A stretch of 64,000 bases of DNA. Origin: Oikopleura dioica. Lineage: Eukaryota; Animalia; Chordata. How positions within the stretch are numbered: position 1 is the first letter of the stretch; every line of letters begins with the position of its first letter. Made by a program: the position numbers and the translations under genes. The notes beneath the pieces are model-generated. The model was not told the origin of the DNA. It was given only the letters and a program-made list of their open reading frames with translations, and did no database searches. This document shows positions 16,981-62,528 of this stretch, in pieces. Location: the NCBI GenBank assembly GCA_907165135.1, contig OU015569.1, forward strand, positions 5,936,769 through 6,000,768, in the 5' to 3' direction.

Positions 16981-17410
16981 TTTAGGACGATAAAAATATA
17001 TTTCTTGAGAAATTACAAAATAGCGTGTTTTGACCCTTCTTGTTTCAAGCTTTTCGAGTACTATCAGTGCTCAACTATGCTTCATAATATACCAATAGAA
17101 AGCTTAGAGCCTCTTCTAGGGGGATTTGAATTCAAAAAGAGAAATAACGGACCCGAAAAATTATTTTGATACAACTTAGGTACTTAACTTTGACGGTGAT
17201 TAAAGGGTACTTCCGGCTTCATTTGTTAGTTACACAATTTATTTTCTTCTGTTTTCTATTCAAATCCCCCAACAAGAAGCTACAAGCTTTCTTTTGATAT
17301 ATTATGAAGCATAGTTGAGCACTGATAGTACTCGAAAAGCTTGAAACAAGAAGGGTCAAAACACGCTATTTTGTAATTTCTCAGAAAATATATTTTTATC
17401 GTCCTTAGAC
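16981..17410. repeat. Near-perfect long inverted repeat (hairpin/foldback). Arms are about 16981-17132 and 17252-17410 (about 150 bp, over 95% identical) around an about 120-bp spacer.
   Basis: Left arm tttaggacgataaaaatatatttcttgagaaattacaaaatagcgtgttttgacccttcttgtttcaagcttttcgagtactatcagtgctcaactatgcttcataatata... is the reverse complement of 17283-17410. The pairing extends to gggggatttgaat / attcaaatccccc. Confidence 0.85.
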
Positions 17411-17691: not shown

Positions 17692-18440
17692 ATGTACGGC
17701 AAAGAAAGGGAGCCGATCTGTTTTGTGTGCGCTTCAATATTCGACAAGAAACTGCTTGAAAGGGGACGCCACTCATTCGTACCTCCTGTAAAATTCAAAT
17801 GCGCTGGTCGTGATTGCGAAAAGGAACTTACCTTCCGCCAGCTCGTCGACGGACAGTGCTGCCCTGAGACTGCGTTTGTTTTGTCTTTAGGTACCCAGTC
17901 TATGAATTCCTCTCTAATATCCTCTCAAAGAAAGCTCTGCACACGTGAACACCTTATTCCAATGCTTGAAGAATCAAGCCGACAAGTGCAAAAAAGATGT
18001 TCATCGGGCGCGATCCACCTTTGGTCGCACAAAAAAAGTCCTGGAAGAAGCAATACAGGCTCATGAAAAGTCCACACAAAAATTCGAGAAGGCTGAAGCA
18101 GCGTTCAAGACAAAGCAGCAACAAGAAAAAGAATTATTTTCACTCATTTCCAATAGAAACAGAGGTATTTTAAGTCTTAAATTCAGAATAAGAAGTGGAA
18201 ATTAGTCTAACATGCCATTTTTCAGCGATCAAACTGAGTGCAGCGTCCGAGAACGAGCAAAAGCCCGGATGCCAAGTCTGCATGGAAAACTACAACAACG
18301 ACGAACGATTTGAATGTGCTCTTCCGTGTGGCCATCGATCTTGCATGAAGTGCTTGACACATTTGTCAATCACTTGCCGATCACTATGCCCTACTTGCCA
18401 ACAGCCATTCTCAAAGGATCAGATCATCAAGCTCTACTGA
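17692..18440 (+). CDS. RING-finger (C3HC4-type) protein with an N-terminal Cys-rich region and a central Lys/Glu-rich helical segment, 3 exons.
   Basis: Exon 1 (MYGKEREPICFVCASIFDKK...FKCAGRDCEKELTFRQLVDGQCCPE) ends at ttag|gtaccc. The intron 18165-18226 ends in the classic tttttcag. The last exon carries CQVCMENYNNDERFECALPCGHRSCMKCLTHLSITCRSLCPTCQQPF. An AATAAA signal lies at 18495-18500. Confidence 0.75.
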
Positions 18441-18494: not shown

Positions 18495-18500
18495 AATAAA
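18495..18500 (+). terminator. Polyadenylation signal AATAAA about 55 nt after the RING-finger gene stop.
   Basis: aatcaataaaagcg downstream of the TGA stop at about 18438-18440. Confidence 0.5.
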
Positions 18501-18553
18501 AGCGTAATCATTACCTCTTTCAACTCTTTTGGCACATTGATATATTCTGCATT

Positions 18554-20136
18554 CATAGGGCTTCCGTATAAAAAAACAAAATTTTAACTGGGCTGACCGA
18601 ATTGTTTGAAACTCGGGGAGGGAATGTATTTTTCAGTGGAGAAAAATTTTCATCATAAAAAAAAAATTTTTATCCACGCACGTGATTGTTAAAATGAGAA
18701 AACTGATTTTCTCGTCTCGTCCCTTGTCGATTTTTTTCATTTTTAGATATGTGAAAGGGCATAGTCAAAAACCTAGATTTCTTAAAAAAAATTTATTGCA
18801 TATGCAATAAAACATCTAAAATAAGATTTTATCTTGATATTAAGATTTTATTGTTTAAAAAAAGTCCTCCGGAGGACTTTTGCTGGAAGAAGCTTTTATG
18901 AAGAAGACATTGAAAAATTAAAAATAATTTAACAAATCAATCGAAAATAATAATGTATATTTATAAAAACATATCAACTCTACTAAAAACTATCATTCGG
19001 GCTGTTACTTCGGGCCGTTTCAGCCCCGTTCCATGATTTTTAAATTTAAGGGCTTGACGGCCCTTCGGGCCGTTTCAGCCCCGTTCCATGATTTTTAAAT
19101 TTAAGGGGCTTGACGGCCCTTCGGGCCGTTTCAGCCCCGTTCCATGATTTTTAAATTTAAGGGGCTTGACGGCCCTTCGGGCCGTTTCAACCCCGTTCCA
19201 TGATTTTTAAATTTAAGGGGCTTGACGGCCCTTCGGGCCGTTTCAGCCCCGTTCCATGATTTTTAAATTTAAGGGCTTGACGGCCCTTCGGGCCGTTTCA
19301 GCCCCGTTCCATGATTTTTAAATTTAAGGGGCTTGACGGCCCTTCGGGCCGTTTCAGCCCCGTTCCATGATTTTTAAATTTAAGGGCTTGACGGCCCTTC
19401 GGGCCGTTTCAGCCCCGTTCCATGATTTTTAAATTTAAGGGCTTGACGGCCCTTCGGGCCGTTTCAACCCCGTTCCATGATTTTTAAATTTAAGGGGCTT
19501 GACGGCCCTTCGGGCCGTTTCAGCCCCGTTCCATGATTTTTAAATTTAAGGGCTTGACGGCCCTTCGGGCCGTTTCAGCCCCGTTCCATGATTTTTAAAT
19601 TTAAGGGGCTTGACAAAGGCCTGGAACTCCGAGTTGATCAATCTCAGTTATGTCCCCAACCCCACCCACACCCATGATTATTAAAATTCAATTTGTCCTT
19701 GTTTATTTGCAAATTATGGTTTTTCCGTTAAATATTGAAATATTATATATTTTTGAAAAATTTAATTCTATGTCTTCTTCTAAAAAGTTTCTTCCAGCAA
19801 AAGTCCTCCGGAGGACTTTTTAACAATAACAAAGTTAATTTTTTACTAAAAATTACTATTTCTGATGATATAAATGGCCAGTCAAAATTTTTTTTATGAA
19901 ATATTATGTTTTTGATGTTTCTCTATAACATATCAAAAAATAAAAAAAATCCACAAGTGACAACGCACAAATGAAAAATCACCATTTTTATTTATATAAT
20001 TTTGATATAAAACATTATTTTCTTTTAATTCTTTTGCCCCTAAAAACTTTTTCTTATATTGATTTATCCCTCCCATAATTATTTAAGGAAACAATGAACG
20101 GAATCAGAAACAATTTTTTTATACGGAAGCCCTATG
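18554..20136. mobile_element. Composite non-autonomous foldback-type element with nested symmetry. It has perfect 23-bp outer TIRs, about 57-bp inner inverted repeats with a palindromic core, and a central 11x tandem satellite. There is no ORF.
   Basis: Outer TIR catagggcttccgtataaaaaaa (18554-18576) is the exact reverse complement of tttttttatacggaagccctatg (20114-20136). The inner arms 18851-18910 and 19770-19826 share the palindrome agtcctccggaggact. An AT-rich interior lacks any coding potential. Confidence 0.7.
19008..19615. repeat. Tandem satellite of 11 copies of a 55-56-bp unit, cttcgggccgtttcagccccgttccatgatttttaaatttaagggcttgacggcc. Each unit carries the hairpin acggccc-ttc-gggccgt.
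   Basis: Direct reading shows 11 head-to-tail copies with only point variants (cagcccc/caacccc; aaggg/aagggg). Confidence 0.95.
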
Positions 20137-21027
20137 CATTCAACAGAGGGCGAACGCCAAATGCGATCATATATTAATATATAACTATATGGGGGAGATC
20201 AATATGTCACCAGTCTTCGGACATATTCGCGCTTCGAAAAGCGCGATCAAGCAGAAGAGACAATGACTTGCAACATGACAATGACAGATAATAAGTATAA
20301 GAGAAAGCGCAGTATGGTCAAGGGCTCATATTAGAATTAAACATAAACTTTAATCGGCTTCAATCGTAAATATGCGTGATAAGATACGGTCGTTTCTGAA
20401 ATCGTCCCTCAACAAGGTAAAATACGGAAGTTTTTCATATTAAAAACCTGTTCATAGATGCATTTCTACGTAAACTCGGAACTCCGGTAAAGGATGAAAT
20501 GCAAATGATTTATGCTAATAACTTTTATGTTATCGAAATGCTGTGCCAAAGGAACTGCTTTCAACCTAAAAGAACATGCCTTTACAAAGAAGAAAGAGTA
20601 TATTTGACTTCACTCCAAAAGAACGCTTCAAAATGCTAAAAGAGGTGCAATTATTTGAATTGACACACAATCGAGTTGCTCCTTAGGTGAATACTGCAGA
20701 AAAACAGAGTGGAGTTGGCTCGGGTAACATCGAAAGCGCCGCGTATCACGATGAGCATGAACTCACAGTGATCTTCTGGGGGCTAGGTACGATAAAACTT
20801 TGCATTTTAAAGCAATGTTCTTTTAGTTCTTTTGCTATTCTGGTCTTTGGAGTGCTACCGTACTCACTTGAAAGCGTGATTCTTCCTTATGTGCTGGCAA
20901 ACAGCACGGCAAATGCTTCTTGATCAAACCTATCAATAAAGTAAAGAAACACAAGAGTCGAGAATCTATTCTTATATATTCATCTTAATTATTCTTTCTG
21001 TGCAGTAAACGAATTCGAGAAGAAAAA

Positions 21028-27010: not shown

Positions 27011-30000
27011 ATGCCGCTCGAAAAGACTGGCTCAGCGAAGACGGTGACCGGAAATGTCCGAACGGTCAGGCTCAATACTTACAGAGAGAGAAAATTTGAA
27101 TGCCAAGAATTGGAAAAAGAAAACAACCAACTCTCAAATACGATTGTACAGGTAACTTGACTAGGATTCTGAAGAGTCGTTTATTTGTACCTTCCAGCTG
27201 CAAGACATTATTTGCGCGAAAGATGAGGAGATGAAGATCCTGAGAATGCAGGTTGCGGATCAAGAAATCATAAAGGACAAATTCGATCAGTTGAAAGGAG
27301 AAGTCGTCAAAGTCGGATCAAAGGTACTTTTCGATATCATTTTTTCTTGCTCGGAACTACAAATGGGCTTCAATTAGACATAATTATACATCTTATCGAT
27401 ATCAAGAATGATAAAGTTATATGAATATTTTCTTATTCTCTCTCTCAAACATTTTCTCCAGCTCGAAACTTCATTTACCGAGGAAATCGAACAATCGGAA
27501 ACCATCGAGGTTGTTACAGAAAGAATAGTGCAAGCTGCGCCATCTACTCCCCCTCCTCCACCTTCGCCAGAGATCTTCATTGATTATGATCCGTAAGTCT
27601 ATTTTTCTGAGAATGTTTTGAAATGGGGGAGAAATGTCAAAAAATGCGTGTATAAAAAACGTTGCAAAACTAGACGACCAGATGTGGCATTTGAAGCTGC
27701 AAAAATGGATCGACTGAAGAAGGAAAACGCCTTAATCTTCCAGAATGAAATGCTTCAGACTTCACTAGATCAGGAAGGTGGATTAGATTTTTCCTTCCTT
27801 TGCTTTATGGCAGGATCTATCCATATGAAAAAGGAAATTTTGAAAAACGCGGCGCTTGAAGAACACCTGGTGACGGTGAAGCAACAACTTGCTCACGAGT
27901 TGAAGGAGAAAGAGGGAACAGTTCGTGAACTTCGGCAGTTGAAGCACGAATTAGCAAGTTTGAATGTTAAGCTTTCTGCGGTCGAGCTGAAAAATAGTAA
28001 GTGTTTCGATGATAGCTTGGTTGTTTCGATTTCATTCCATAACTCGAATGAGTGCGATTTAACCCCTCTCCAGTCACTAACAATTTGTAGGTGGAGCGTT
28101 TGGAAAATGTGTCTATCTCATAAAACTGCTGTCAATGTTCACTGCCACATTCGCAAGTCAACTCGTTTCGCTCTGATACTGATACATTCTGCAATCATAA
28201 ACGATTCTTCAAATTGGCCAGTAAGCTTTGAGTTTTAGACGAAGCGAAGAAAGACCTTGACACGCTGAAAATGGCTTCGCAAGTTGAGATCGACCAAATG
28301 AAAGCGGATTTCAACGGAAAAGAAAAAGACTTCAAGGTTTCTGCTGCCCCTAAAGAAAATCTTAACAATTTCAGGACGCGATGAAAAATGCATTGGAGGA
28401 AAACGATAAGCTAAGAGAGCACAACAAAGAACTTATGTCAGATTTGTCTGACGTCCAAGAGCTCATCTCAAATATGTCCGATCAGAACACAAATCAGACA
28501 TTTTTGCAAGAGCGCATCCAGTCGTTGGAAAAAGAAAACAAGATCTGTAAGATGCTCATTGAGAAGAAAAACGAGACCATAGGAAAATTTATAAATAATT
28601 CATATCTTTGTACGAAAAAAAAACATATTCATAAATCATCAAAGCTAGCTTAGAAAAGCAGAAAAGCGGCGACGGAACCTCTGATCTTGCAGCAAAGGTT
28701 GATTCTCTTGATGCAGAGCGAGGCGCATTCGAAGAGCAATCGCAAAAATATAAAGTCGCAATAGGAGCGCAAAAACGATACATTGGTAACAGAATTCGAA
28801 AAAAACGTAAAAATAAGCGAATTTTTAAGATAGCTTAAATGAAGCTATGCGACTTTCTGACGAAACACGACTGAAGCTCAAAGAAGAGGTAACAGTATTT
28901 CTACGCTCTGAGTTATGTAAAATGTAGATTACTGCTCTTCAAAACGAAAAAGTAAAGCTGCATGATCAAGTGAAAGCATTTGTGGAGCTCAGAGCAGCGG
29001 AGCAGAATCAGCGAGTCGCCACGGAAAATTACAAAAAGATCCTCGAAGCTCGGAATGAAGAGACTGATGGTCTGCTTGAGCAGTACAGGAACCAGATGAA
29101 ACGTTTAGATGCCGAACTCGATAACGTTAAGAAGCAGAACGAGGCTAAAGGTGAGTTGTCTACTTATTAAACTATTTGTAATTTTGTTTAAGATAAACTG
29201 AACACATCTTTCAAACGACAAACAGAAACTATGAAGCAGTTACTCAATCAATACGAAATAGATTCCAAGCAAAAGGGCGAAGAAAACAAAGTCCTTTCTG
29301 AAAAATTGAATCGTCTGATCAAAATCAACCAGGATCTAATCGAAAACAAGCCAGCCGAGCCAGTAGAAAAAATTGTAGTCGAGGTTTTATAATTAACCTT
29401 TACAAAAATCAGTAGATTTCTATTAGGGATCGCCAGAAGCTCAAGCTGCTCAGATGAAAATGGAGCTCAGAAATGCAGAACTCGATCGAGATCTTGAGAA
29501 GGCTCGATCCTTGATTAAGAGGCTTACAGATGAAAATAGACTTCAACAGAATCAGGTTTCGAAAGAATTAGTATGCCTGTTCTTAAAAATACATTCAGAT
29601 CGAGAAGTTCCAAGCAAGTTTCCTCAAGATCGACACAGAAAAAATGGAACTGGAAGAGACCGTTCGTGGACTGAAAAAGCGAGTCGACAGTTCCACTTCC
29701 TCACCAGATGTTGAGAAAAAGACCGAAGAGAACTCCGCTATGTCAGCTAAGGTGCACGAAATGAACCAAAAACTCATCAAGCAAATGACACAAATGAATG
29801 AAGCCCTGAATTATTGCCAAAAAGAAAAAGACGAGATTATTGAAAAATCTGAGAAAGTATTTGAATTTTCATTTAGCCTTCGAATTGATTTTCCTTTTAG
29901 TTGATCAAGGTTACTGGGAATATGAAGCAGGAGAACGAGCGTCTCCAGAACCTAGTGATTGAGCTTCAAGAGCAACTTGAAACGAAACTGACGAGCCCCG

Positions 30001-33000
30001 CTGCCCAAGAAAGCCCCAAAGCGCCAGAAGCTGCCAAAGCCAAGCAAGCTCCCAAAAAGAAGAAAAATAACAAGAAATAGGAATCACGCAAAATGACCCA
30101 TTTTTGACATTTCTCCGCCAAAATTTTATTTCTCACGCAAAATGTTTTTCTTGCGCAAATCTTTACTTGAAGTTCCGAACACTGAAATAAACATGCAATT
30201 ATAGAAACGATAGTTCTGAAGGCTCCAATGCAAGCAAATCGACAGAGGAGAAGCTTGAAAAACTTCAAAAGAAGTACCAAATGGAGAAGAAGAGATCTGA
30301 AACGATGCATGACGAGTTCCGAATCTTGAACAGAAAGTATCAACAATCTAAAGATACTCTTGAACAATTCAAAGCAACGGAGCAAAAACTCAACGCGAAA
30401 CTCAAGGTACTTCGGGTCATGTTATTTTTTGACTCAGTTTCCATTCAGGGAGTTTTAGAAGAACAAGATAGGCGAATCGCGGAATCTGCGCAGAGCGAGC
30501 AAGAGAGTGCGACAATGATCAAAGATCTTCAAGAAAGAGTAGCGACATTAGAATGCGCTTCCGACGAAGAACTCAATGAGCGATACACTTCGCTCCAGAA
30601 ACGATATATTGAGTTGGAGTCGAAAGACTTGGACTACACGGAAACCATTGCCACACTGAACAACCAGTTAAACGAGCTGAAAAACGCTCATGAAACCGCG
30701 CTGAAAGAACTTGCGGCACAAGCAAGTAAAGACGAAGAAAGCTCAAATGACGACCATGAAGACTTGCGAATCGCGAAAGTGCACAATGAAGCAACCATCA
30801 AGTCCTTGGAAGCAAAGCTCGAGATTCTTCAAATGGAGAAGAGACGAACATCTACCGATGAAAACTCGAATAGCTCTGCAAATGTACGAGAGGATCAGTA
30901 TGAAAAGGACCTCGCAGAAGCTTTGCGCAAAGTTGATGATCTGTCCATCGAGGTAAAAGAAAAAAAAATGATTAAAAACTTACTCATTTTTAGCTTTTCA
31001 ACAAAAGTCAACAGCTCGATGAGGCCAAATATCAAATCGAGCAGCTAAAACTTTCCCCGGCGAATGAAACTGACAAGGCTGTCGCTGAATTACAACAGAA
31101 ACTTAACCATGTTGAAAAGCAAAAAGCCCAAATCGTTTTATCTGCTGTAAAGAACAGCGATAAATATGCTGCAGAAATCGAAGAATTGAAAGAGAAAATC
31201 TCCGAATTAGAAAAACAAGAGGAAGATCAAGGCAAAAATGTGTCGTCCGAATCCGCTCAGGCGATAGAAGAACTCAAGGAAAGCAACAAGCGATTGTATT
31301 CGGAGCTTGTGGCGTCTGAAACCAGTGAACAAACGCTGCGAAAGGAGATAGAAACTGCAAGAGCAAATGTGTCGAGACTCGAAGTACAGAACTCGACAGT
31401 GCTTGAAGAAGTGAGTCGGCTCAATGACACTCTTGCCGCAGCAGAAACTGAAATCAACAAAATGCGCGATGAAATTTACAGTTTCAAGGTATGATTAAAT
31501 CCATGTAAACTTCTCTGAAGCAAACACTCTCTTAGGACTCACACACTTTATCTTCAAGTGGATCTTCTATCAGCAGCTCACCAGAAGACTTATCAGCAAA
31601 ATACACTAAACTGACATGCATTTACAGAGCAAAACTTGAGGAAATTGTTAAACTAAGCAAAGAGCTCCAAAAGTACGTGCTATTCAATCATAAGTACTCG
31701 TCTATACCGTGATAAAACATTATGTTTTCAGGAAAGAATCTTTGGAGAACGATTTAAAAGTCGCCAACGAAACTATCAACAACAAGGATCAGAGCCTACA
31801 AGATATTCTCTCCAAAAATACAGCATTATCTTCCAAGGTTAAAGTCTTGGAAGAAGACTTAGAAGAAATGAAAAACGAGGTGGACAGAAAGGCGGACGCA
31901 ATAAAGAAAATGAAATCCGGCAAAAACGACAGACAGTGGTCCCAAATGCTGGCTAACAACGGCGTGCCTGAATCGGGTAGAGTTTCTCCTCAACACCATG
32001 TACAACATCACACTGACAACTTTTACGATGAAAACATCGAAAATGAATAAATTGCTGCAACAATCTTTTATGCATTGACGAATGTCTTCTATGATTTCGC
32101 AGTTGAAAGTGGTCAGTAGGAAGTTGAGCTGGTTATTTCGTGTGTCTAAATGAGTTTATAGACTTGTCCTCGTTTTCATCTGATGCTGAGGAGGACTTTG
32201 CAGTTTCGACTCCGAATGTCGCGATGCAGTTGAGAATCAAGGACGACACTATTCGAGAGTTGAGACAGCATCTTGAAGTGAGAACGGCCGAGTTTGAAGC
32301 CTTAGAAGCCAAACTAGCGGATATCAGTCTTAGGAACAGTGTTCAAAATTATCAGTAAACCCAAATTTTCGTAAATGGTAGAGGAGTATTGAATCTGAAT
32401 TAAGAATAAAAAATACATCGGAGGATGAAATTCGAGAGCAATTGTCCAAACTAATGGTGCAAATCAAAGAAGTACGAGATGATAATGATAGACTCGAGCA
32501 AGAAAATCTTGATCTAAAGGTTTAGTAAATTAAAGAAGTTTACAACTTATCTGAAATCAAGGAAGAGTGCAGCAAACTTATGGAAGAGCAGCTAGCCCAA
32601 CCCTCAAGTGTTGAATCAATCCAAAGACAATTAGATGATTTGACAGAGATTGTCGAGGTTTTTGATTTTTTAAATTTTTCATGAAAATATTCATAAGTCA
32701 AAAAATAACGACGAAGAAAAACTGAGGAAAGAATTGGAAGAATTGCGCGCCAGAATTCGAGAGTACGAGGACGCAGAAGAAGTTCGATCAAACTTATTCC
32801 ACGGGTCTCGTGGGAGCTCTCCGTTCTGGGTTCGCACAAAAAATTTAGTTTTAAAAAACGGCAGACAAAGACAATGCCTATCCATAAAAGCCTGACACAC
32901 TTGCCGACTCTTTGGCTGCATTAAACGACGAGAACCATTTCCTTCGAAGAAACCTGTCGAAGTCAGAGCTCGAAATCGAAGAACTAAAGGATCAACTCGA

Positions 33001-33355: not shown

Positions 33356-33426
33356 ATGTTTGTAATAATTACAGTATAGTATATGAATTCCTTTAATCAA
33401 CAAATAAATTTGCGGCTGGTGACTAG

Positions 33427-34068
33427 GGAGGTTTGCAATTAGTCTGGGTACAGACCCAGACTTCGAGCTACAATTGCTAGTCTGGGTCCAGGGCCCAGAC
33501 TTGGTTATATTTTCGTAGTCTGGGTCTCTGGCCCAGAGAAGATCTTTTAACCCGTAGTCTGGGTCCAGGGGCTGGCTGGCGCCTAGTTTCACAAACTTTA
33601 TCAACCCGGTTCAAAATTTCGGGAGAATGGTTCATAATTTCGGTCAGAAAAGTGACTCGAATTGACTGAAGGCGCGGTTGCATAGAAAGTTTAACTTTTA
33701 AAAAAAAGAAAGTTTTAACTTGAGTTTCTCTTCGAAATCAGGCGCGGAGCGCATATTGACCCGTAATTTCTTACTTTGGAAAATTTTGGGAACCGGGTTC
33801 ACACAGATCATGAACTGTGTCCACCCGATCCAGGGCTGATGATCGCGTGAGTCAAAAGAAGGCTATAATGTGAGCACTGTGCCGAAATCCTAGTACAAAC
33901 TACCATCTGAAAGGCTATTTACGGCCCTGGACCCAGACTACGAGTGAAAAGAGCTTCTCTGGTCCCGAGACCCAGACTACGGAAATATAACCAATTCTGG
34001 CCCCTGGACCCAGACTAGCAATTCTTACTCGAAGTCTGGGTCTGTACCCAGACTAATTGCATACTTCC
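33427..34068. mobile_element. MITE-like non-autonomous element (642 bp) with about 140-bp terminal inverted repeats, flanked by a perfect 8-bp direct duplication GTGACTAG.
   Basis: Left arm ggaggtttgcaattagtctgggtacagacccagacttcgag... (33427-33580) is about 90% identical to the reverse complement of 33925-34068. Each arm holds 4 copies of the sub-motif tagtctgggtc. TSD copies are at 33419-33426 and 34069-34076. There is no ORF inside. Confidence 0.75.
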
Positions 34069-34584
34069 GTGACTAGTGTTCTTTGGATTAATTCTTGTCC
34101 TCATTGTTCACGCCGAGCGAAAATGTTAACCTGGCAAAGTATTGGACCCGCTCGTAACCCTGTCGGTATTGAATGGATCAAACGAGCAAATTCAATAAAT
34201 AAAGTGAATGAATGCAAAATGCCATTTATTTGGTTTCTCAAATTTTGTATCAGAAAAAGGCGGAGACATCAAAGAGAAAGCAGGACAAAATGTCCAAAAT
34301 GTAAAAGACACGAAGATAAAAAATATCTGAACGGGTTAATTTAGCGGGGCAGCAATGCCCGGGGAAGAAAATGGCTCACTTAATTTCGCAGATCTTAAAT
34401 TAACTGAGTAGGAGGAAAAGCTCCTCGACTACGAGAAAGTGGAGGCTGCAGTAATATTAAAATAGGGTCAGAAGAATAACTAGCTCATAGAATTGTCTAC
34501 GAGCGAGTTTCTTTAGTCTTAGGGTTAGAAGATCGAGAAGTCAAGTGCTTCACAATGGGCACTGGCATGAACTGCCGTTGCTCT

Positions 34585-45845: not shown

Positions 45846-46302
45846 CTGCCCGCGTAAGTCGGCCTGACGTCTTTGCCGAGCTCGTCAATGACTCCAACGA
45901 GATCCTCGAATTTTTCAGTCATGCGCGGTTGATCGATCATCTTTGCCGTTCGCGGCTGCTTTTGCGCCGGTCTTGAGTAAGGCGCATTGCTTTGCTGCTT
46001 CGACTGACGCTTAATTCAATTCAATTTTATGCTACTTGTGGACCATTTTCTTACATATGAAGGGGGTGGGTTGCTCAATGCTTTCATTCGCTCTTTGTAA
46101 GTCGGCTTCGTTTCGGCCATTGCTCGGTAGTTAGCTGCAGCCTGTGCGGCGGCAACTTGCTTTCCGAGCATTTCCAACTTCTTTTGTATTTCTTCGTTCT
46201 GAAAACTTTCATAAAAAAGGACTTTAACTTAGGACTCTACCGTTTGTCGTTGAGCAACTTCCAGGAGCTTCGCCTGCGCTGCTATAATGTCTGGCGGGTT
46301 GT
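45846..46302 (-). CDS. Small (about 110 aa) unassigned protein, 3 exons.
   Basis: MSRNNPPDIIAAQAKLLEVAQRQT|gtagag..(42 nt)..ttttcag|NEEIQKKLEMLGKQVAAAQAAANYRAMAETKPTYKERMKALSNPPPSY|gtaaga...aattaag|RQSKQQSNAPYSRPAQKQPRTAKMIDQPRMTEKFEDLVGVIDELGKDVRPTYAGSKR*. Confidence 0.55.
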
Positions 46303-46533
46303 TTCGGCTCATTCTTAATTTGTCATTTTCAACTCAATTTTAAATATGTTTAGTGTTACAATATATACAGATTTTTTTCTGAAGGAACTGGCAGGGATGT
46401 GAGAGTTATTATTTGATGAACGTTGTTTCAGTGAAAATCGGCAGGGATATAGTGAGTGAATAACTTCTGCGCAAGTCAAAATGAGTGAAATTCTAAAGTA
46501 TAACAACATGAACACGATGTTCGTTGCGAATAT

Positions 46534-48258
46534 TTAAGTTGCTTCAGGGATTTCGTCCAGGGAGGGGAGAAGATCGTCTATAATTGGAGGGCCTTCCAGA
46601 GAGCCTTCTTTATTTTCAATCACTGTGGGCAGATCTTGCTCCATGGCGGAAGAAGCATCATTCTCTTGCGATTCTCCTCCGTTAATTCCCAGATTAGAAA
46701 GGCTTTCTTCAAGAGGGCTCGGAGCCTCTGTTATTCCTGTAGTCCCTCGTTGCAACCCAGGAATTGATACCGACGGATCCTCATTAAAGTCAGCCTCTTT
46801 TTCATACTCGTACTCGGGTTCGGAGTCTATATCAAAGATACCGTCCCATTCGTGGATCATTTCCACCATCAGCTCTTCGTAGAATTCGCATACAAGCTGA
46901 AATAACACGTAATTGAGTGTCATGAACATTTTTTTACCTTCGGACAGTTTTTGCGGCAGTCTTCGCTTTTTACGAAATCAATTATCTTGCTATCTTTCCA
47001 CTCGATTGCAAAGTAAACTGAATAGAAGATGCTTATTAAAATTGTTTTTCTTTTACAGTAGTTTCTAGTGCCTCTCGAGACGCTAAGATAATTCTTACTT
47101 TGGCCGTCGTTGTCTGCAACGCATTCGTGAATTTTGACAGCTTCAAAGCCGCGATTAAAGCCGACTTTCTCTAGATCAGCCCAGGGATCGTCTTCTTTCT
47201 TTTCGTCACCGACGACCTCTTCATCCTCCTCTTTCGCCGCCTTCTTTTTCTCATTCGTCTCAGCGATTTGATCAGTCTGGGGTCCGTCTTGGCTTTCGTC
47301 ATCTGAATTCTGAATGTGCATCGCTTCAAGTGCTTCATCTTCCCACGGTTTCTCCCATTTGATATCTGGGTGCGCCGGATCTATCAGCGGCGCTTTTTTC
47401 GTCTGACGCTCTTTCTTGAGAAAGTTCGGATCGACAGATTCTTCATCCTCCACTTTCTCTTCATTCTCATCGGCTGCTTCTGGCTCATCATTTGCTTCGT
47501 CGACATCGTCGTCTTCGAAAGCCAATTGTTCCAATTTTCCAGGGTTCGAACGTCTGTACTCAGCAACCAAAAGTTGTCCAGGTGTGTCCTGTGGATCTGG
47601 TCTTTCTTCAGCGAGCTCTCCCTTCCTTGAATCAACGAAATTCGATTCTACTCTTTGTGAAGGTTCAATCATTGAAATAGAGGCAAGTATTATTTCCTGA
47701 TTTCTGAATATTGAATCAATCGGAAATGAAGAACCCCGGCTAAATATCATTTCGGCTTGGAGAGCTTCTTCGGCCGTCTCCTCTCGTTTCCGCTTTAGTC
47801 CAACAATCCGTATCGGAGGAATCTTTGGCTCATGGCTTGGTTTTTCTTCCTCTACATTTTCCAGAGGCTCCTGTGGTTTATCTTTGTCTTTATTTCGCCT
47901 CGAGCTTTTCCGACGTTTTTCTTTCGCACTATCTCTCGATTTTTTTCTATTCCTGGACTTTTTCTCCTTTTGTAATTTTATATCAGCGGCATGCTTTTCC
48001 TCGAATTCTCTGATTCTATCCGCGCAGTCTAGGAAGTTAGATTTGAAAAATCTTGCCAGAACCGAAAAAAATTACCTAGATTCTCTTCTGGCTCCCATGT
48101 ATTCTGCTCATCGTCGTAGCCGGCCCATTTTATCAAATACTCGATACCGCCCTGAATAAACGCTAGAACTCCCGAACACTTCCTTCGACACTCACTTGTC
48201 GTTTACGTTTGCCGAGGATCTTCTCGACTTCGAACTCCTCTTCTGATGCCACACTCAT
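46534..48258 (-). CDS. Chromodomain protein with a long acidic (Asp/Glu-rich) C-terminal region, at least 4 exons.
   Basis: Exon 1 is [21 protein letters not shown]|gtgagt. Exon 2 is [25 protein letters not shown]..., a canonical chromo signature (E-x-ILxxR...G.xEYLxKWxGY...NTWEPEENL). The 276-aa and 131-aa ORFs (46920-47750, 46534-46929) are extremely acidic ([26 protein letters not shown]...). Confidence 0.75.
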
Positions 48259-57619: not shown

Positions 57620-59493
57620 TTAGAATCCAAAGTCGCGATCTTGGAGAACAGCCGGAGCAATCATGGTCCAAGTGTAGAGCAAAACGCACACCCAGGCGGA
57701 ACACATTTTTACCCACACGGGAGCCCATCCGGCGATGACAAGCGGATTATTGTCCTAAAACAGCGTAGAAAACTGTACTATCAAGTTAGTTCAGTCTTAC
57801 CTTGCTGGCTTCCGCGGCTTGAGAGATATTGAACCAGTAAGTCAATGTCATCATAATGTAAAGAGTTCCAAGGGAAAACATGAAGTGCAGATAGCTTAAA
57901 ATTTGACCCTGTTAAACCCTGCTCATGGCCATTTTAAAACCTATAGCTGTATTGAGTAGCGTCTTCTTCGTCGTCCCAGGTTCCGCCTTCAGGATCGCTT
58001 TGATCTGTCATTACAACTGTGTCCGCTTCAGCGGGTTTTCCAGAGCCTTAAGAATTTTTAGAATTTCGCAAGACTTTCGCAAAAGCCGATAATGATAATC
58101 TGGGAAGTGAAATAATTTGTGAAAATGAATCTGTGAGTGTTAAATTGTCGCGTAAATTGGCAAGCATATTTCAAGAAAAGCATGCAAAACGGGTTACCTT
58201 CATTCAGTCTTTCGTAAGTTGCTAAGTTCACGGTGAAGCTTGATTAATCTCAGTGGTACAAGACAAATTTCATAAAAATTTGAAAATCACCGATTCAATA
58301 CCTGCGGAGGAATTGGTAAGGGAGGACCAGAGGACTGCCAAGAAGAAAAGAATCAAGCCAACGATAGATTGGGCGTTAAATCCAGTTATTCCTAGGAGCG
58401 AAAGATAAAAAACGAGGACTGAATTGAATAAGAATGCCTTGAGTCGGATCAGTGTTTGGGTCTGGCTGGCCGCCATCAGTAATGTTGAGGATGCTGGCGA
58501 TGCTTGGATTGCAATCGAGCTCGGGCGAATTCGACATCGAAGACCAAGTCAAGAACATAACGTAAGCAGAAACAACTGCAGACTGGAGGAGTCCAGATGC
58601 CGGGTTATGCTCCTGTACCTAAACTCTCGTGTTAACGAAGTTCTTGACAAACGGACTCATACCTTGGGAAGGATCGAAACGACAGAAATTATAAAGCAAA
58701 GGATCATATTAAAGCTGATGAAGAATTTGTGTAGGCTGCAGGAGTTTGTTGTCTCCGTAAAGTTGCCACCGTAAAAGTAAAAGAGATATCCAATGGCGAC
58801 ACTTGTCAGGACGAAGATCGAGAATGTAGCAAAAATGAGCCCTGCGAACCAACATTTTTGGTCGCGCTCGTCGTCGGCATCTTCCATGTTCTGCACTGCC
58901 CAGGCGTTGATTCGATACGCAAAATCAATGAAGAGCACCAGTTGAATCAAAATAAAGGCCAATCCGCCGATGAGTCCAAACACGTACATGACCTGATCGA
59001 ATGGCTCGGATGGGATAAAGAAGGCGGCGGTGATAAAAGCTGCGAGAATAAGAAACTTGATTCCCCAAAAACCATTTTGAATTCCAGAGCGAGGATCCTT
59101 CGAGCTTCGTGTGCCCAGCATCAAAATCATGAAGAGCCAAAAGAAGCAGCACATTCCGAAGCAGACTCGGTAAGCGGCCTCGAATCCGACGAGTCGAGTA
59201 CAGTCAATCGCGCCATCGCCAGTTGTCTGCGTGCCAATAAGACTGTCGAGTTGGGCTGTGACGTCAGAAATTCCATCATTGCGGGTGCCCTTGCAGAGCA
59301 TGGGAACTTTTCGGAGCGCGTCTTCTAGTCCATTTGTGCACATAATCATCGCAAGAATACTTCCGAGGAGCATAAAAAGCGCATACATCAGTCGCGCACT
59401 CGTTGAGTTTTTGCATGATGGACATGCAGAACAAAGACACGAAGCTGCTTGGCCCGTTACACAACAGGCGAGCGATCCCAGTCCGAGACACAT
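57620..59493 (-). CDS. SERINC: Serine incorporator (SERINC/TDE1/TMS1 family) multi-pass membrane protein, at least 5 exons.
   Basis: The 278-aa exon 58657-59493 ([27 protein letters not shown]...[17 protein letters not shown]...[17 protein letters not shown]...[19 protein letters not shown]) is collinear with SERINC N-terminal halves. Later exons are ...[27 protein letters not shown] (58376-58558), [41 protein letters not shown] (58270-58476), ...[22 protein letters not shown] (about 57950-58040), [21 protein letters not shown] (about 57800-57895) and ...[39 protein letters not shown] (57620-57750). Confidence 0.9.
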
Positions 59494-59536
59494 TCTCTAA
59501 AAATGAAAATCTTGGTTGCGCAATTTTTCATTTGAA

Positions 59537-60334
59537 TCAGGAATCAGCGTCTTTTGTAGAAGATTTTTGGTCCTCAAAGTCGGATAAACAAAAAGGAGGC
59601 CCATGGCCTGGAAAAATCAAATCAGGCTTGGCATGTTGCTGAATGAAGAGACGCGAGGCTCGCGAGAGCGCCGGTTCTTCAGAGAGAGATTCATAGAATG
59701 ATTCATCATCTTTTTCATCCCAGAGGTCACCAACAAACGCAAATTTTGAGTAGCGTTCGTTGCGAAATATCAAATCGCCGGTGATAATGAGACTGCAGCA
59801 GCCACCAGTGTGTCCGGGCGTTGTTATGTATTCCAGAGAGACATCTTCATTTTCGAATTTCAGAAGACAGGCTCCTATTTGCTTGTCTGACGGAAGTAGA
59901 CGAGGGCTACGGAAACGCTCCTTTATACTTGTATCCCGGCCAACGCTTATCACAGCTATAAAAATCCAAAATCAATATAAAAACATGCATTACCTGATGG
60001 AAACAGATTCAAGTTTCCCACGTGATCAGAGTGTCCGTGGGAGCAGAATACGGCGTCGATGGCACTTATGTTCTTCTCTGATAGTTCTAGGCAAAACTCA
60101 TCCGCTAGCTATCCTTTTTTTGACTTTACTTTCAGTAATTGTATCTCTTTCATGCGCCGCCCCACAATCAAAGAGAACATTTTGCACTGGAGAAATTTCG
60201 GGCTTCTGCTTTTCGAACTCGAAAGTCTCATTGACGGCATTTCTCAGCGAAATCAAACATACAGTGCAGCGTGCATGAAAAACAGAGTTAATTTCTCGAG
60301 CGTAGCCTTCTTGAATCAACGTCACTTCCGCCAT
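59537..60334 (-). CDS. MBLAC1: Metallo-beta-lactamase fold protein (MBLAC1-like), about 3 exons.
   Basis: MAEVTLIQEGYARE...NVLFDCG (start 60334; an in-frame upstream Met at 60418 is also possible). ...LELSEKNISAIDAVFCSHGHSDHVGNLNLFPS| (HxHxDH zinc motif, about 59995-60090). The 59537-59953 exon carries ...TTPGHTGGCCSLII...FPGHGPPF... The stop TGA is at 59537-59539. Confidence 0.8.
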
Positions 60335-60469
60335 TCTGGAAATGAAAAAAATATTAACTTGGTGGGTCAGAAATTCATTTTCTATTAGGAAAATCTGGGG
60401 CTCGGAAGTTAGGATCATGCAGGTCCATATTTAGTTCTTCAGCAGACATATCGCCTTGTCTTCTGTCTA

Positions 60470-62528
60470 ACGGCTTCTTTGCATCACGTGCTGCTTTAAT
60501 TTCGGCCATTTTCGCTCTAAAATCGAATCAGCTGAAGGATTGCAACTGAGGTTCTTACCTAGCTTTTTGCTTAATCCTTTCTTTTTGTTTCCTGCCCGTG
60601 TTTTTAATTTCATTTTCTGGAGCTGTTCTGGTCGGGTGCTTCTTATCGTATCTGGCGAGTTCTTGAGCTTCGAACTTTGCCATTTGCTCAATCTCCTTTT
60701 TCACAAGCGCCGATGTCTATAAATCCAATTATGCATAAAAACAAGGCTTTCGCTCGAACCTTGAAAAGATGCCCCTGATTGGGGCCTAGAAGACGGCCGA
60801 CTCTTTCGAATTGGTCACCGTCCATGCCACTAAAAGAGTCTTCTGCATCTTCGTAAAAACGATTTTCAAGAGGAATTCCAAGACGGTTTAATATTTTTGA
60901 AGAAATCTGAGGAATAGCAGGTTGCAGAAGAATAGCAGAAACACGTAGAAGCTCATAACATGCATGAATAGCTTCAGTAAAAGAGTTTTAGATTCTGCTT
61001 TATCTAATAACTATGCTCTACCTGAATCTTTCTGCATGCGTTCACTTTTTATATCTCTATCCAATTTAAAAATCTTTTCGTTTGTCATGAATTGAAGTCC
61101 TTCTTCAACAGCTCGAATGACGCAGTTCATTGCACTTGGAAGCTGTCCTTGGTCGACAAATTTCGCGTACACTTCTGGCAACTCTTGAACAGTTTCGATG
61201 AGATATTTTTCGCCGTCGGGGCGATCTAACAGCGAGTCAGGGAAAAGAGTCGGATATGCTCCACTAGGGTTGAGATTCTTCGAAGTGGTTCTTGAGAGAA
61301 GATTCGCGATTTTATTTGCCAAGTCGCTATCAGACTGAATTCTGAGTAGCTCGTCCTGAAAGTCCACGTTCTTGAGGGTAGCATGTTTGAGACAGAACCA
61401 ACGAACAGCGTCACTTTGATTTCCGACTAATTCGAGCAGCTCCTTTGGAGTGACAAAGTTGTCCAGACTTTTGGACATTTTCATTCCATTTCGCGTCCAA
61501 TGACCATGAACGAAGACTTTCTTGGGCAGAGGAAGATCCGCAGCCAGAAGCATCGCTGGCCAATAAATACAGTGGAATCGAGCGATATCGATCCCGAGAA
61601 CTTGAAGTTGCGGCGGCCAGAAATCGAGAGCGTTTTCATGTCTTGCGTAGCCAGCTGCGGTCAAGTAGTTGATTAACGCCTCGAACCAAACGTACATTGT
61701 ATGATTTGGATCATCAGGAACAGCAACGCCCCATGGAACTCTCTTTCTCGGCCTAGAAATAGAAAGACTGGTGTTGCCAGTATTTCTTCGCTCCTTCAGC
61801 TCATCGATTAAAACTTTAGCAACATCTGGGGTAACAGCTTTTTCTATCCATGCTTCTATTTCGCTTAAAAATGGCTCAAAATCGAAGATATAGTTTTCTT
61901 CAGAAATCCATTCTAGTTGATGGCCGTTTACGCTACTAAAGTGTTTGCCGTCCTTTTCTACTATTTCTTTATTTCCGACAAATGATTCATCTGGTGTCGA
62001 ATACCATCCTTCGTAATTCTTAATTCTTATATGACCCTTCGATCTTAGCCGGCTCCACAGCTTCTGGGCGGCCTCGTGATGCTCAGGATTTGTCGTTCTC
62101 ATGTAAATTGCATCGTCGAGGGAGGCAACAGAAATGGAGAATTTTTTAAACGTTCTTCTATACAAGTCGGAGATGTTATTGACGAGCAGCTCTGGGTGAT
62201 CGTAGCCCTGTTGTGCAGCTGAGCGAATGATCTTTTGACCGTGTTCATCAGTCCCGATGGAGAATTTACTAGGGACATCGTTTATCTTATTCCAACGGTG
62301 GTAAAAGTCCCCAATTACACTAGAGTGAATATGACCAATGTGGGGAGTAGACGTCGCGTAATAAATGGGACAGGTAACAAAATTGGTCTGCTTGTTTAAT
62401 ATGCGTACGCCATGCGTTTTTCTCAGGTCACCACGAGAGGCGGAAGAAGTCTGCAATGATCCTAGATATCGATAGCTGAGTATTTGCGACTTCGGTCTGA
62501 GTCCGATCATGCTAAACAATCTAATCAT
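60470..62528 (-). CDS. MARS2: Methionyl-tRNA synthetase, organellar (mitochondrial) short type, about 3 exons.
   Basis: The 505-aa first exon begins with a presequence-like N-terminus (MIRLFSMIGLRPKSQILSYRYLGSLQTSSASRGDLRK). It carries the class-I HIGH motif (YYATSTPHIGHIHSS) and KMSKS. Downstream exons are about 60730-60900 (...IPQISSKILNRLGIPLENRFYEDAEDSF...) and about 60470-60700 (Lys-rich tail). Confidence 0.9.

Follow-up and report, generated by a model that had tools for sequence, protein, structure and literature searches.

A non-autonomous, probably hAT-like DNA transposon carrying a hairpin tandem array in Okinawan Oikopleura dioica

The appendicularian tunicate Oikopleura dioica has the smallest genome of any free-living animal, with few characterised DNA transposons. 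A 64,000-bp stretch of its Okinawa assembly (GCA_907165135.1, contig OU015569.1, positions 5,936,769 to 6,000,768; hereafter the window) contains, at 18556-20134, a 1,579-bp non-coding element (36% G+C) bounded by terminal inverted repeats (TIRs) and a target-site duplication (TSD). The element, composed of two long inverted arms, two unique core parts and a central tandem array of hairpin-forming monomers, is inserted in a short spacer where a RING-finger gene and a Na+/H+ exchanger gene converge with their 3' ends. An earlier note on this DNA had described positions 18554-20136 as a composite, foldback-type element with nested inverted repeats around a hairpin satellite. Its TIR boundaries, lack of autonomy and internal hairpin array stand; the missing TSD, the composite nesting and the foldback family find no support.

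The left TIR, TAGGGCTTCCGTATAAAAAAA (18556-18576, forward strand), is the perfect 21-bp complement of the right TIR (20114-20134, reverse strand), and its terminus, TAGGG, fits the consensus YARNG. Identical 8-mers, TGCATTCA, directly adjoin both element ends at 18548-18555 and 20135-20142, where the earlier note had seen no clear TSD. The direct repeat measures exactly 8 bp, with no extra matching base at either side, and the junctions read ...ttc TGCATTCA / TAGGGCTTCCG ... CGGAAGCCCTA / TGCATTCA acag.... The outer 23-bp inverted match described before survives re-extraction of the exact coordinates: CATAGGGCTTCCGTATAAAAAAA at 18554-18576 is the exact reverse complement of 20114-20136, and these two are its only matches in the window at up to three mismatches, with 0 expected from shuffles. 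Both this 23-bp length and the flanks once described as partly palindromic arise from the TG at the start and the CA at the end of TGCATTCA, which lengthen the inverted repeat by 2 bp; the outer CA/TG belong to the duplication, and the TIR proper is therefore 21 bp.

Scanning the window for 8-bp direct repeats abutting inverted termini that match at 12 or more of 14 positions yielded three matches: the element itself, an unrelated element at 33427-34068 and an artefact of an internal palindrome. Five shuffled windows yielded 0, 1, 0, 0 and 0. Exact inverted termini of 21 bp with an exact 8-bp direct repeat set against them are the scar that transposase-mediated insertion specifically leaves; they are not expected from local duplication, and they bear out the earlier proposal of a transposable element bounded by TIRs. 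Since both the duplication and the TIRs are perfect, the insertion appears to be young.

The longest open reading frame (ORF) within the element encodes 57 aa. Pfam gave no match, at E values up to 1, to any of four element ORFs (42-57 aa), an exhaustive HMMER search of 1.84 billion representative proteins with the 57-aa ORF found no relative, and exact look-up of two element ORFs matched nothing. The element is therefore non-autonomous, as the earlier note had concluded from the lack of an ORF.

hAT elements carry TIRs of about 10-25 bp. The short 21-bp repeats, the TAGGG...CCCTA termini and the 8-bp duplication (for which a 6- or 4-bp reading is also possible) agree with this superfamily, and on these three features we file the element as hAT-like. 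YARNG termini and 8-bp duplications are listed among hAT features (PMC3014272), so that the earlier note, which could assign the unit to no named family, can be extended to a superfamily. We thus read the element as a non-autonomous class II (cut-and-paste) DNA transposon of the Okinawa lineage of O. dioica, with hAT as its most probable superfamily; this reading is probable rather than secure. The term "non-autonomous element" describes it better than MITE (miniature inverted-repeat transposable element): the repeats, the duplication and the lack of an ORF agree with a MITE, but its 1,579 bp, or ~1,030 bp with a single monomer, exceed the strict MITE size of less than ~800 bp.

Several observations weigh against this reading. 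The TSD length is formally ambiguous (8, 6 or 4 bp) owing to the TG and CA at the two ends of TGCATTCA: GCATTC as a 6-bp duplication, leaving ends ATAGGG, is roughly as parsimonious as the 8-bp one, and CATT as a 4-bp duplication, leaving ends CATAGGG, is less so, requiring a larger coincidence. The octamer does not fit nTnnnnAn, the weak target preference of hAT elements. Short repeated subterminal motifs of the Ac/Hermes kind were not found, a k-mer count in both arms giving only k-mers of the palindrome; such transposase-binding motifs are not universal among hAT elements. A hAT transposase has a BED finger, an RNase-H-like core and a hAT dimerisation domain; none from O. dioica was identified here, and the 64-kb window holds no transposase ORF. 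Only one copy of the element has been seen, so that its mobility as a family is putative. P-superfamily elements likewise make 8-bp duplications, and YARNG is quoted for the P superfamily as well (PMC2820524).

The best-surviving alternative, which we regard as possible yet unlikely, is a non-autonomous TIR transposon of another superfamily: P, Merlin or Mutator-like (8 bp), or a family that duplicates 6 or 4 bp and has the ends ATAGGG or CATAGGG. The self-complementary ends of the octamer, which permit all three duplication lengths, the lack of detected hAT-like subterminal repeats in the arms and the P-superfamily use of YARNG as a terminal consensus all lend it weight. So does the element at 33427-34068, whose 8-bp duplication is not accompanied by YARNG, showing that another 8-bp-duplicating kind exists in this genome. 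On the other side, the direct repeat extends to exactly 8 bp at most, which leaves TAGGG as a clean YARNG match, and the 4-bp reading would need a coincidence of 1/256, compared with ~1/16 for the 8- and 6-bp readings. The P superfamily has 7-8-bp duplications, ~31-bp TIRs and a THAP-domain transposase. The 8-bp duplication here agrees with that superfamily, but the 21-bp repeats fall short of the 31 bp of classical P elements, and Merlin ends begin with GG.

The arms of the hAT-like element, at 18556-18910 (355 bp, forward strand, 28% G+C) and 19770-20134 (365 bp, reverse strand), are degenerate inverted copies of each other. Global alignment of the left side with the reverse complement of the right side reveals inverted similarity spanning the termini to ~18910 / 19770, with an arm-to-arm identity of ~59% overall and 48-92% by block. 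The termini are perfect, a ~57-bp palindrome block is kept at ~92% and positions 18720-18800 at ~78%, and the remainder ranges from 48% to 68% with indels. The palindrome block (~18851-18910 in the left arm), first described as an inner inverted repeat with a 16-bp palindrome, is present where the earlier note had placed it and is paired in the whole-element fold (18859-18897 with 19821-19783, and 18900-18910 with 19780-19770). At its centre lies a perfect 22-bp palindrome, AAAAGTCCTCCGGAGGACTTTT, with copies at 18860-18881 and 19799-19820, which folds as a hairpin with a 9-bp stem (-8.1 kcal/mol). The 16-bp palindrome is the centre of this 22-mer and occurs nowhere else in the window. Perfect termini and a well-kept inner block within otherwise degenerate arms form a pattern that would be expected if the ends are constrained for transposase recognition.

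Inverted similarity also marks the stretch between the TIR and the inner block, with a local score of 77 vs 23 +/- 3.4 for shuffles (z = 15.7; direct-orientation control, z = -0.2). The arms therefore constitute one long degenerate pair of ~355/365 bp with two well-kept blocks, in place of the composite with two independent levels of symmetry described earlier. Inside the inner block, the inverted similarity between 18911-19007 and 19615-19769 is not significant (z = 0.9).

A foldback or composite origin, with a palindrome-bounded, satellite-carrying inner unit nested in an older element, would accommodate the much better conservation of the inner block than of its surroundings, as well as the fold of the full element, which the earlier note had proposed as a check. 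Folded as single-stranded DNA, the whole element reaches -327 kcal/mol, compared with -136 +/- 7 for shuffles, and in the minimum-energy structure 242 left-side positions (18556-19007), among them the full set of 21 terminal ones, form pairs with the right side. We nevertheless consider this origin very improbable: the inverted similarity runs continuously from the termini to the inner block and shows no nested-insertion boundary, and the palindrome centre, an artefact, supplies the sole direct repeat to be seen around an inner unit. No tandem repeats were found within the arms, unlike in foldback elements, and the array occupies the core. A classic foldback (FB) element is ruled out, with arms that are ~59% identical and non-repetitive.

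The core of the hAT-like element opens with an AT-rich unique part of 97 bp (18911-19007) and closes with a unique part of 155 bp (19615-19769), in which CCCATGATTATTAAAATTCAA is a degenerate echo of the AT-rich CCATGATTTTTAAATTTAA of the monomer. Between them, the tandem array (19008-19614, forward strand) spans 607 bp and comprises 11 monomers of 55/56 bp, the last one of 52 bp, with a G+C content of 51%, compared with 27-28% in the sequence flanking it. Tandem Repeats Finder assigns it a score of 1165 and counts 10.9 copies of a 56-bp period, with 98% matches, and the 11 monomer starts agree with the 11 copies of 55-56 bp counted previously. Each monomer combines an AT-rich spacer of 22 nt with a GC-rich hairpin of 34 nt, GGGGCTTGACGGCCCTTCGGGCCGTTTCAGCCCC, which straddles the boundary between monomers. 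The junction hairpin is imperfect (GGGGC-TTG-ACGGCCC-TTC-GGGCCGT-TTCA-GCCCC), and a monomer dimer folds at -31.3 kcal/mol (z = -6.1). Only two sites vary among the 11 monomers: G/A in TTTCA(G/A)CCCC, and GGG vs GGGG, a homopolymer length difference to which sequencing artefact may contribute in this Nanopore-based assembly. Positions 19149-19337 and 19426-19614, five monomers apart, are 98% identical, which points to array growth by multi-monomer duplication.

In the mechanism we propose, a transposase encoded elsewhere in the genome would bind the 21-bp TIRs, and probably also conserved subterminal sequences, excise the element and insert it with staggered cuts 8 bp apart, the repair of which would create the TGCATTCA duplication. 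The array would be a passenger. It would stem from 55/56 bp of the core itself, a segment with a strong GC-rich hairpin that slippage during replication or unequal exchange would have multiplied, with one five-monomer duplication or more among the steps, and that would be carried along at each move of the element. A host function is unnecessary to explain any part of it. A non-mobile origin, either as an inverted duplication around a minisatellite or as a functional structured locus (small-RNA source, insulator, or replication/recombination element), could draw on the single copy seen, the strongly structured array and a weak resemblance to the microRNA precursor model mir-3836, but is scarcely credible, as local duplication is not expected to produce the exact 8-bp repeat and exact 21-bp inverted termini, the mir-3836 match (31 bits, E = 0.003) lies far under the gathering score of 100 bits, and neighbouring elements with TIRs and duplications show that transposition operates in this genome. 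All Rfam matches within the element are sub-threshold, with none near a gathering threshold.

The hAT-like element shares an 8-bp duplication, a TAGGG terminus, short perfect TIRs, the lack of an ORF, an AT-rich body and a gene-adjacent insertion with non-autonomous hAT elements and hAT-derived MITEs, such as the 32 non-autonomous hAT families of Anolis (PMC3014272) and Drosophila Mar (cited in PMC9659126). It differs from them in being larger than a typical MITE (607 of its 1,579 bp being array), in an octamer that departs from nTnnnnAn and in having no detected subterminal motifs. The earlier note's hairpin array inside the element corresponds to the known situation of a satellite inside a transposon, reviewed for Xmix/Xstir, miDNA4, lepidopteran MITEs, pearl-type elements, DINE-TR1 and Tetris as possible satellite seeds (PMC9659126). 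As in Xenopus Xmix/Xstir and miDNA4, the lepidopteran (GTCY)n MITEs and the bivalve pearl-type elements, a tandem array of homogeneous monomers lies inside a TIR-bounded element, so transposition can spread the repeat. Unlike these satellite-carrying elements, the present one has an appendicularian tunicate host, an unrelated sequence and apparently another superfamily, miDNA4 being listed as Tc1/mariner (PMC9659126). By analogy, it would work like the documented satellite-carrying transposons.

Two further classes offer partial likenesses. Helentron/Helitron elements of the DINE-1 type (Drosophila DINE-TR1, oyster Cg_HINE) place a central tandem repeat between subterminal inverted repeats and carry GC-rich hairpins, but as rolling-circle elements have asymmetric ends with a 3' hairpin and neither a TSD nor perfect TIRs; with its perfect 8-bp duplication and perfect 21-bp TIRs, the element is not of the Helitron/Helentron type (DINE-1/HINE). 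Foldback elements (Drosophila FB, Tetris), which are associated with satellite birth, likewise have long inverted arms and strong foldback potential (PMC9659126). Theirs, however, are near-identical arms of tandem subrepeats that give rise to an arm-derived satellite, whereas the arms here are ~60-65% alike and non-repetitive and the array is central.

No second copy is present in the 64-kb window by TIR (up to three mismatches), monomer, palindrome or BLASTN (word size 7) of the element against the masked window. Further copies were sought in viral, bacterial/archaeal and metagenome collections, none of which includes eukaryotic genomes. Viral contigs gave 0 matches to the TIR and 0 to the monomer, and bacterial and archaeal genomes gave 0 matches to the hairpin. 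The 17-mer TAGGGCTTCCGTATAAA matched 36 metagenome contigs, which have nothing in common with the element beyond the 17-mer and a few A/T bases and carry no inverted partner; by our estimate, 36 is about the chance number for a 17-mer in a collection of that size. Five contigs of one metagenome assembly, JAAUYG01, have TTCTTCCTATGTCCCTT ahead of TAGGGCTTCCGTATAAA in common and differ from one another thereafter. They are rejected as relatives: the 17-mer lies coincidentally at the end of another repeated element, in the opposite orientation relative to the repeat boundary.

In the searchable literature, neither the TIR, the monomer nor the palindrome appears in any paper in this context, and the supplement of the assembly paper contains no repeat library (PMC8008620). 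The element sequence thus matched nothing in the viral, prokaryotic and metagenome collections or the searchable literature (a scope that leaves aside Repbase and Dfam). Within the Bergen assembly OdB3, the stretch around the mitochondrial methionyl-tRNA synthetase gene, which in the window lies 41 kb away, has no similarity to the element, and the orthologous RING-finger/exchanger spacer was not located through matches to the RING exon and the exchanger protein. Mobility receives indirect support from the insertion scar, from two neighbouring elements, from a recent burst of DNA transposons reported in O. dioica (PMC4350176) and from the large unclassified fraction, 44%, among repeats predicted for the Okinawa assembly (PMC8008620).

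The first neighbour, at 33427-34068, is an unrelated element of 642 bp flanked by a perfect, unambiguous 8-bp duplication, GTGACTAG (33419-33426 and 34069-34076). Its 144-nt TIRs (91%) are composed of ~38-bp tandem subrepeats, each with the palindrome TAGTCTGGGTCCAGGGCCCAGACT, and its ends, GGAGGTTTGC / GGAAGTATGC (GGAGG/GGAAG), do not fit YARNG. This design is closer to foldback than that of the hAT-like element, and we would guess the neighbour to be Merlin-like. The second, at 16985-17404, measures 420 bp and lies ~1.1 kb upstream of the hAT-like element, ahead of the RING-finger gene. It has ~150-nt TIRs (93%) with ends GGACGATAAAAATA..., and its flanking TTA duplication (16982-16984 and 17405-17407) carries the signature of a putative PIF/Harbinger (Tourist-like) MITE. 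With two further elements bearing TIRs and duplications in the same 64 kb, such elements appear to be common here.

Cut-and-paste transposons and interspersed repeats have been raised as possible contributors to the extreme genome scrambling that separates lineages of O. dioica (Plessy et al. 2024, PMC11067885). It is improbable, in our judgement, that the element represents a currently active, lineage-specific hAT-type family that spreads hairpin minisatellites in the otherwise very compact genome of Okinawan O. dioica, its cruciform-prone arrays and long arms acting as fragile or recombinogenic sites that contribute to this scrambling. Taken alone, it counts as an ordinary selfish element that leaves current views unchanged, and it is of low to moderate biological interest unless its family turns out to be active and tied to rearrangement breakpoints of the scrambled genome. 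As a cleanly delimited hAT-like element, it provides a seed (terminal repeat, duplication length and monomer) for classifying unclassified repeats and finding an active transposase, and for asking whether hairpin arrays coincide with rearrangement breakpoints between cryptic species.

The window belongs to the X-specific region of the Okinawa assembly OKI2018_I69 (PMC8008620). Its few long ORFs are exon-like metazoan fragments of trypsin, carboxylesterase, the ribonucleotide reductase small chain, Serinc and mitochondrial methionyl-tRNA synthetase, the last a 505-aa ORF that is 100% identical to Oidioi.mRNA.OKI2018_I69.XSR.g15001. The multi-exon RING-finger gene (zf-RING_2 / C3HC4, E ~1e-5) occupies 17692-18440 on the forward strand; its last exon ends 115 bp ahead of the hAT-like element, which is inserted ~50 bp beyond the AATAAA signal at 18495-18500. 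That last exon has no relative in a collection of 5.8 billion proteins, not even in the source genome's own annotation, so the gene may either lack an annotation or be evolving very fast. Downstream of the element, the exons of the Na+/H+ exchanger extend on the reverse strand from ~22160 down to at least 21031; the sole match named O. dioica, presumably from OdB3, is an incomplete protein from a contig of 2 kb. The insertion between these convergent 3' ends is probably neutral.

A 1,114-bp contig from a Joint Genome Institute (JGI) sample encodes a 332-aa Na+/H+ exchanger fragment that is 91% identical to the exchanger exons of the window. Public environmental data therefore include close relatives of this O. 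dioica lineage, although the element itself did not turn up there. The genes for mitochondrial methionyl-tRNA synthetase and Serinc lie side by side both in the window (58657-62528, reverse strand) and in the Bergen OdB3 scaffold FN653079.1, so that local gene order has been kept at this place despite the reported scrambling of the lineages' genomes; identity to the window ORF is 82-86% for the OdB3 synthetase proteins. AT skew is strong in two stretches, +0.22 to +0.30 at 28001-32000 and -0.25 at 46001-48000, which coincide with two genes whose coding strands are A-rich, a long coiled-coil gene (forward strand) and an acidic Glu/Asp/Lys-rich gene (reverse strand), respectively.

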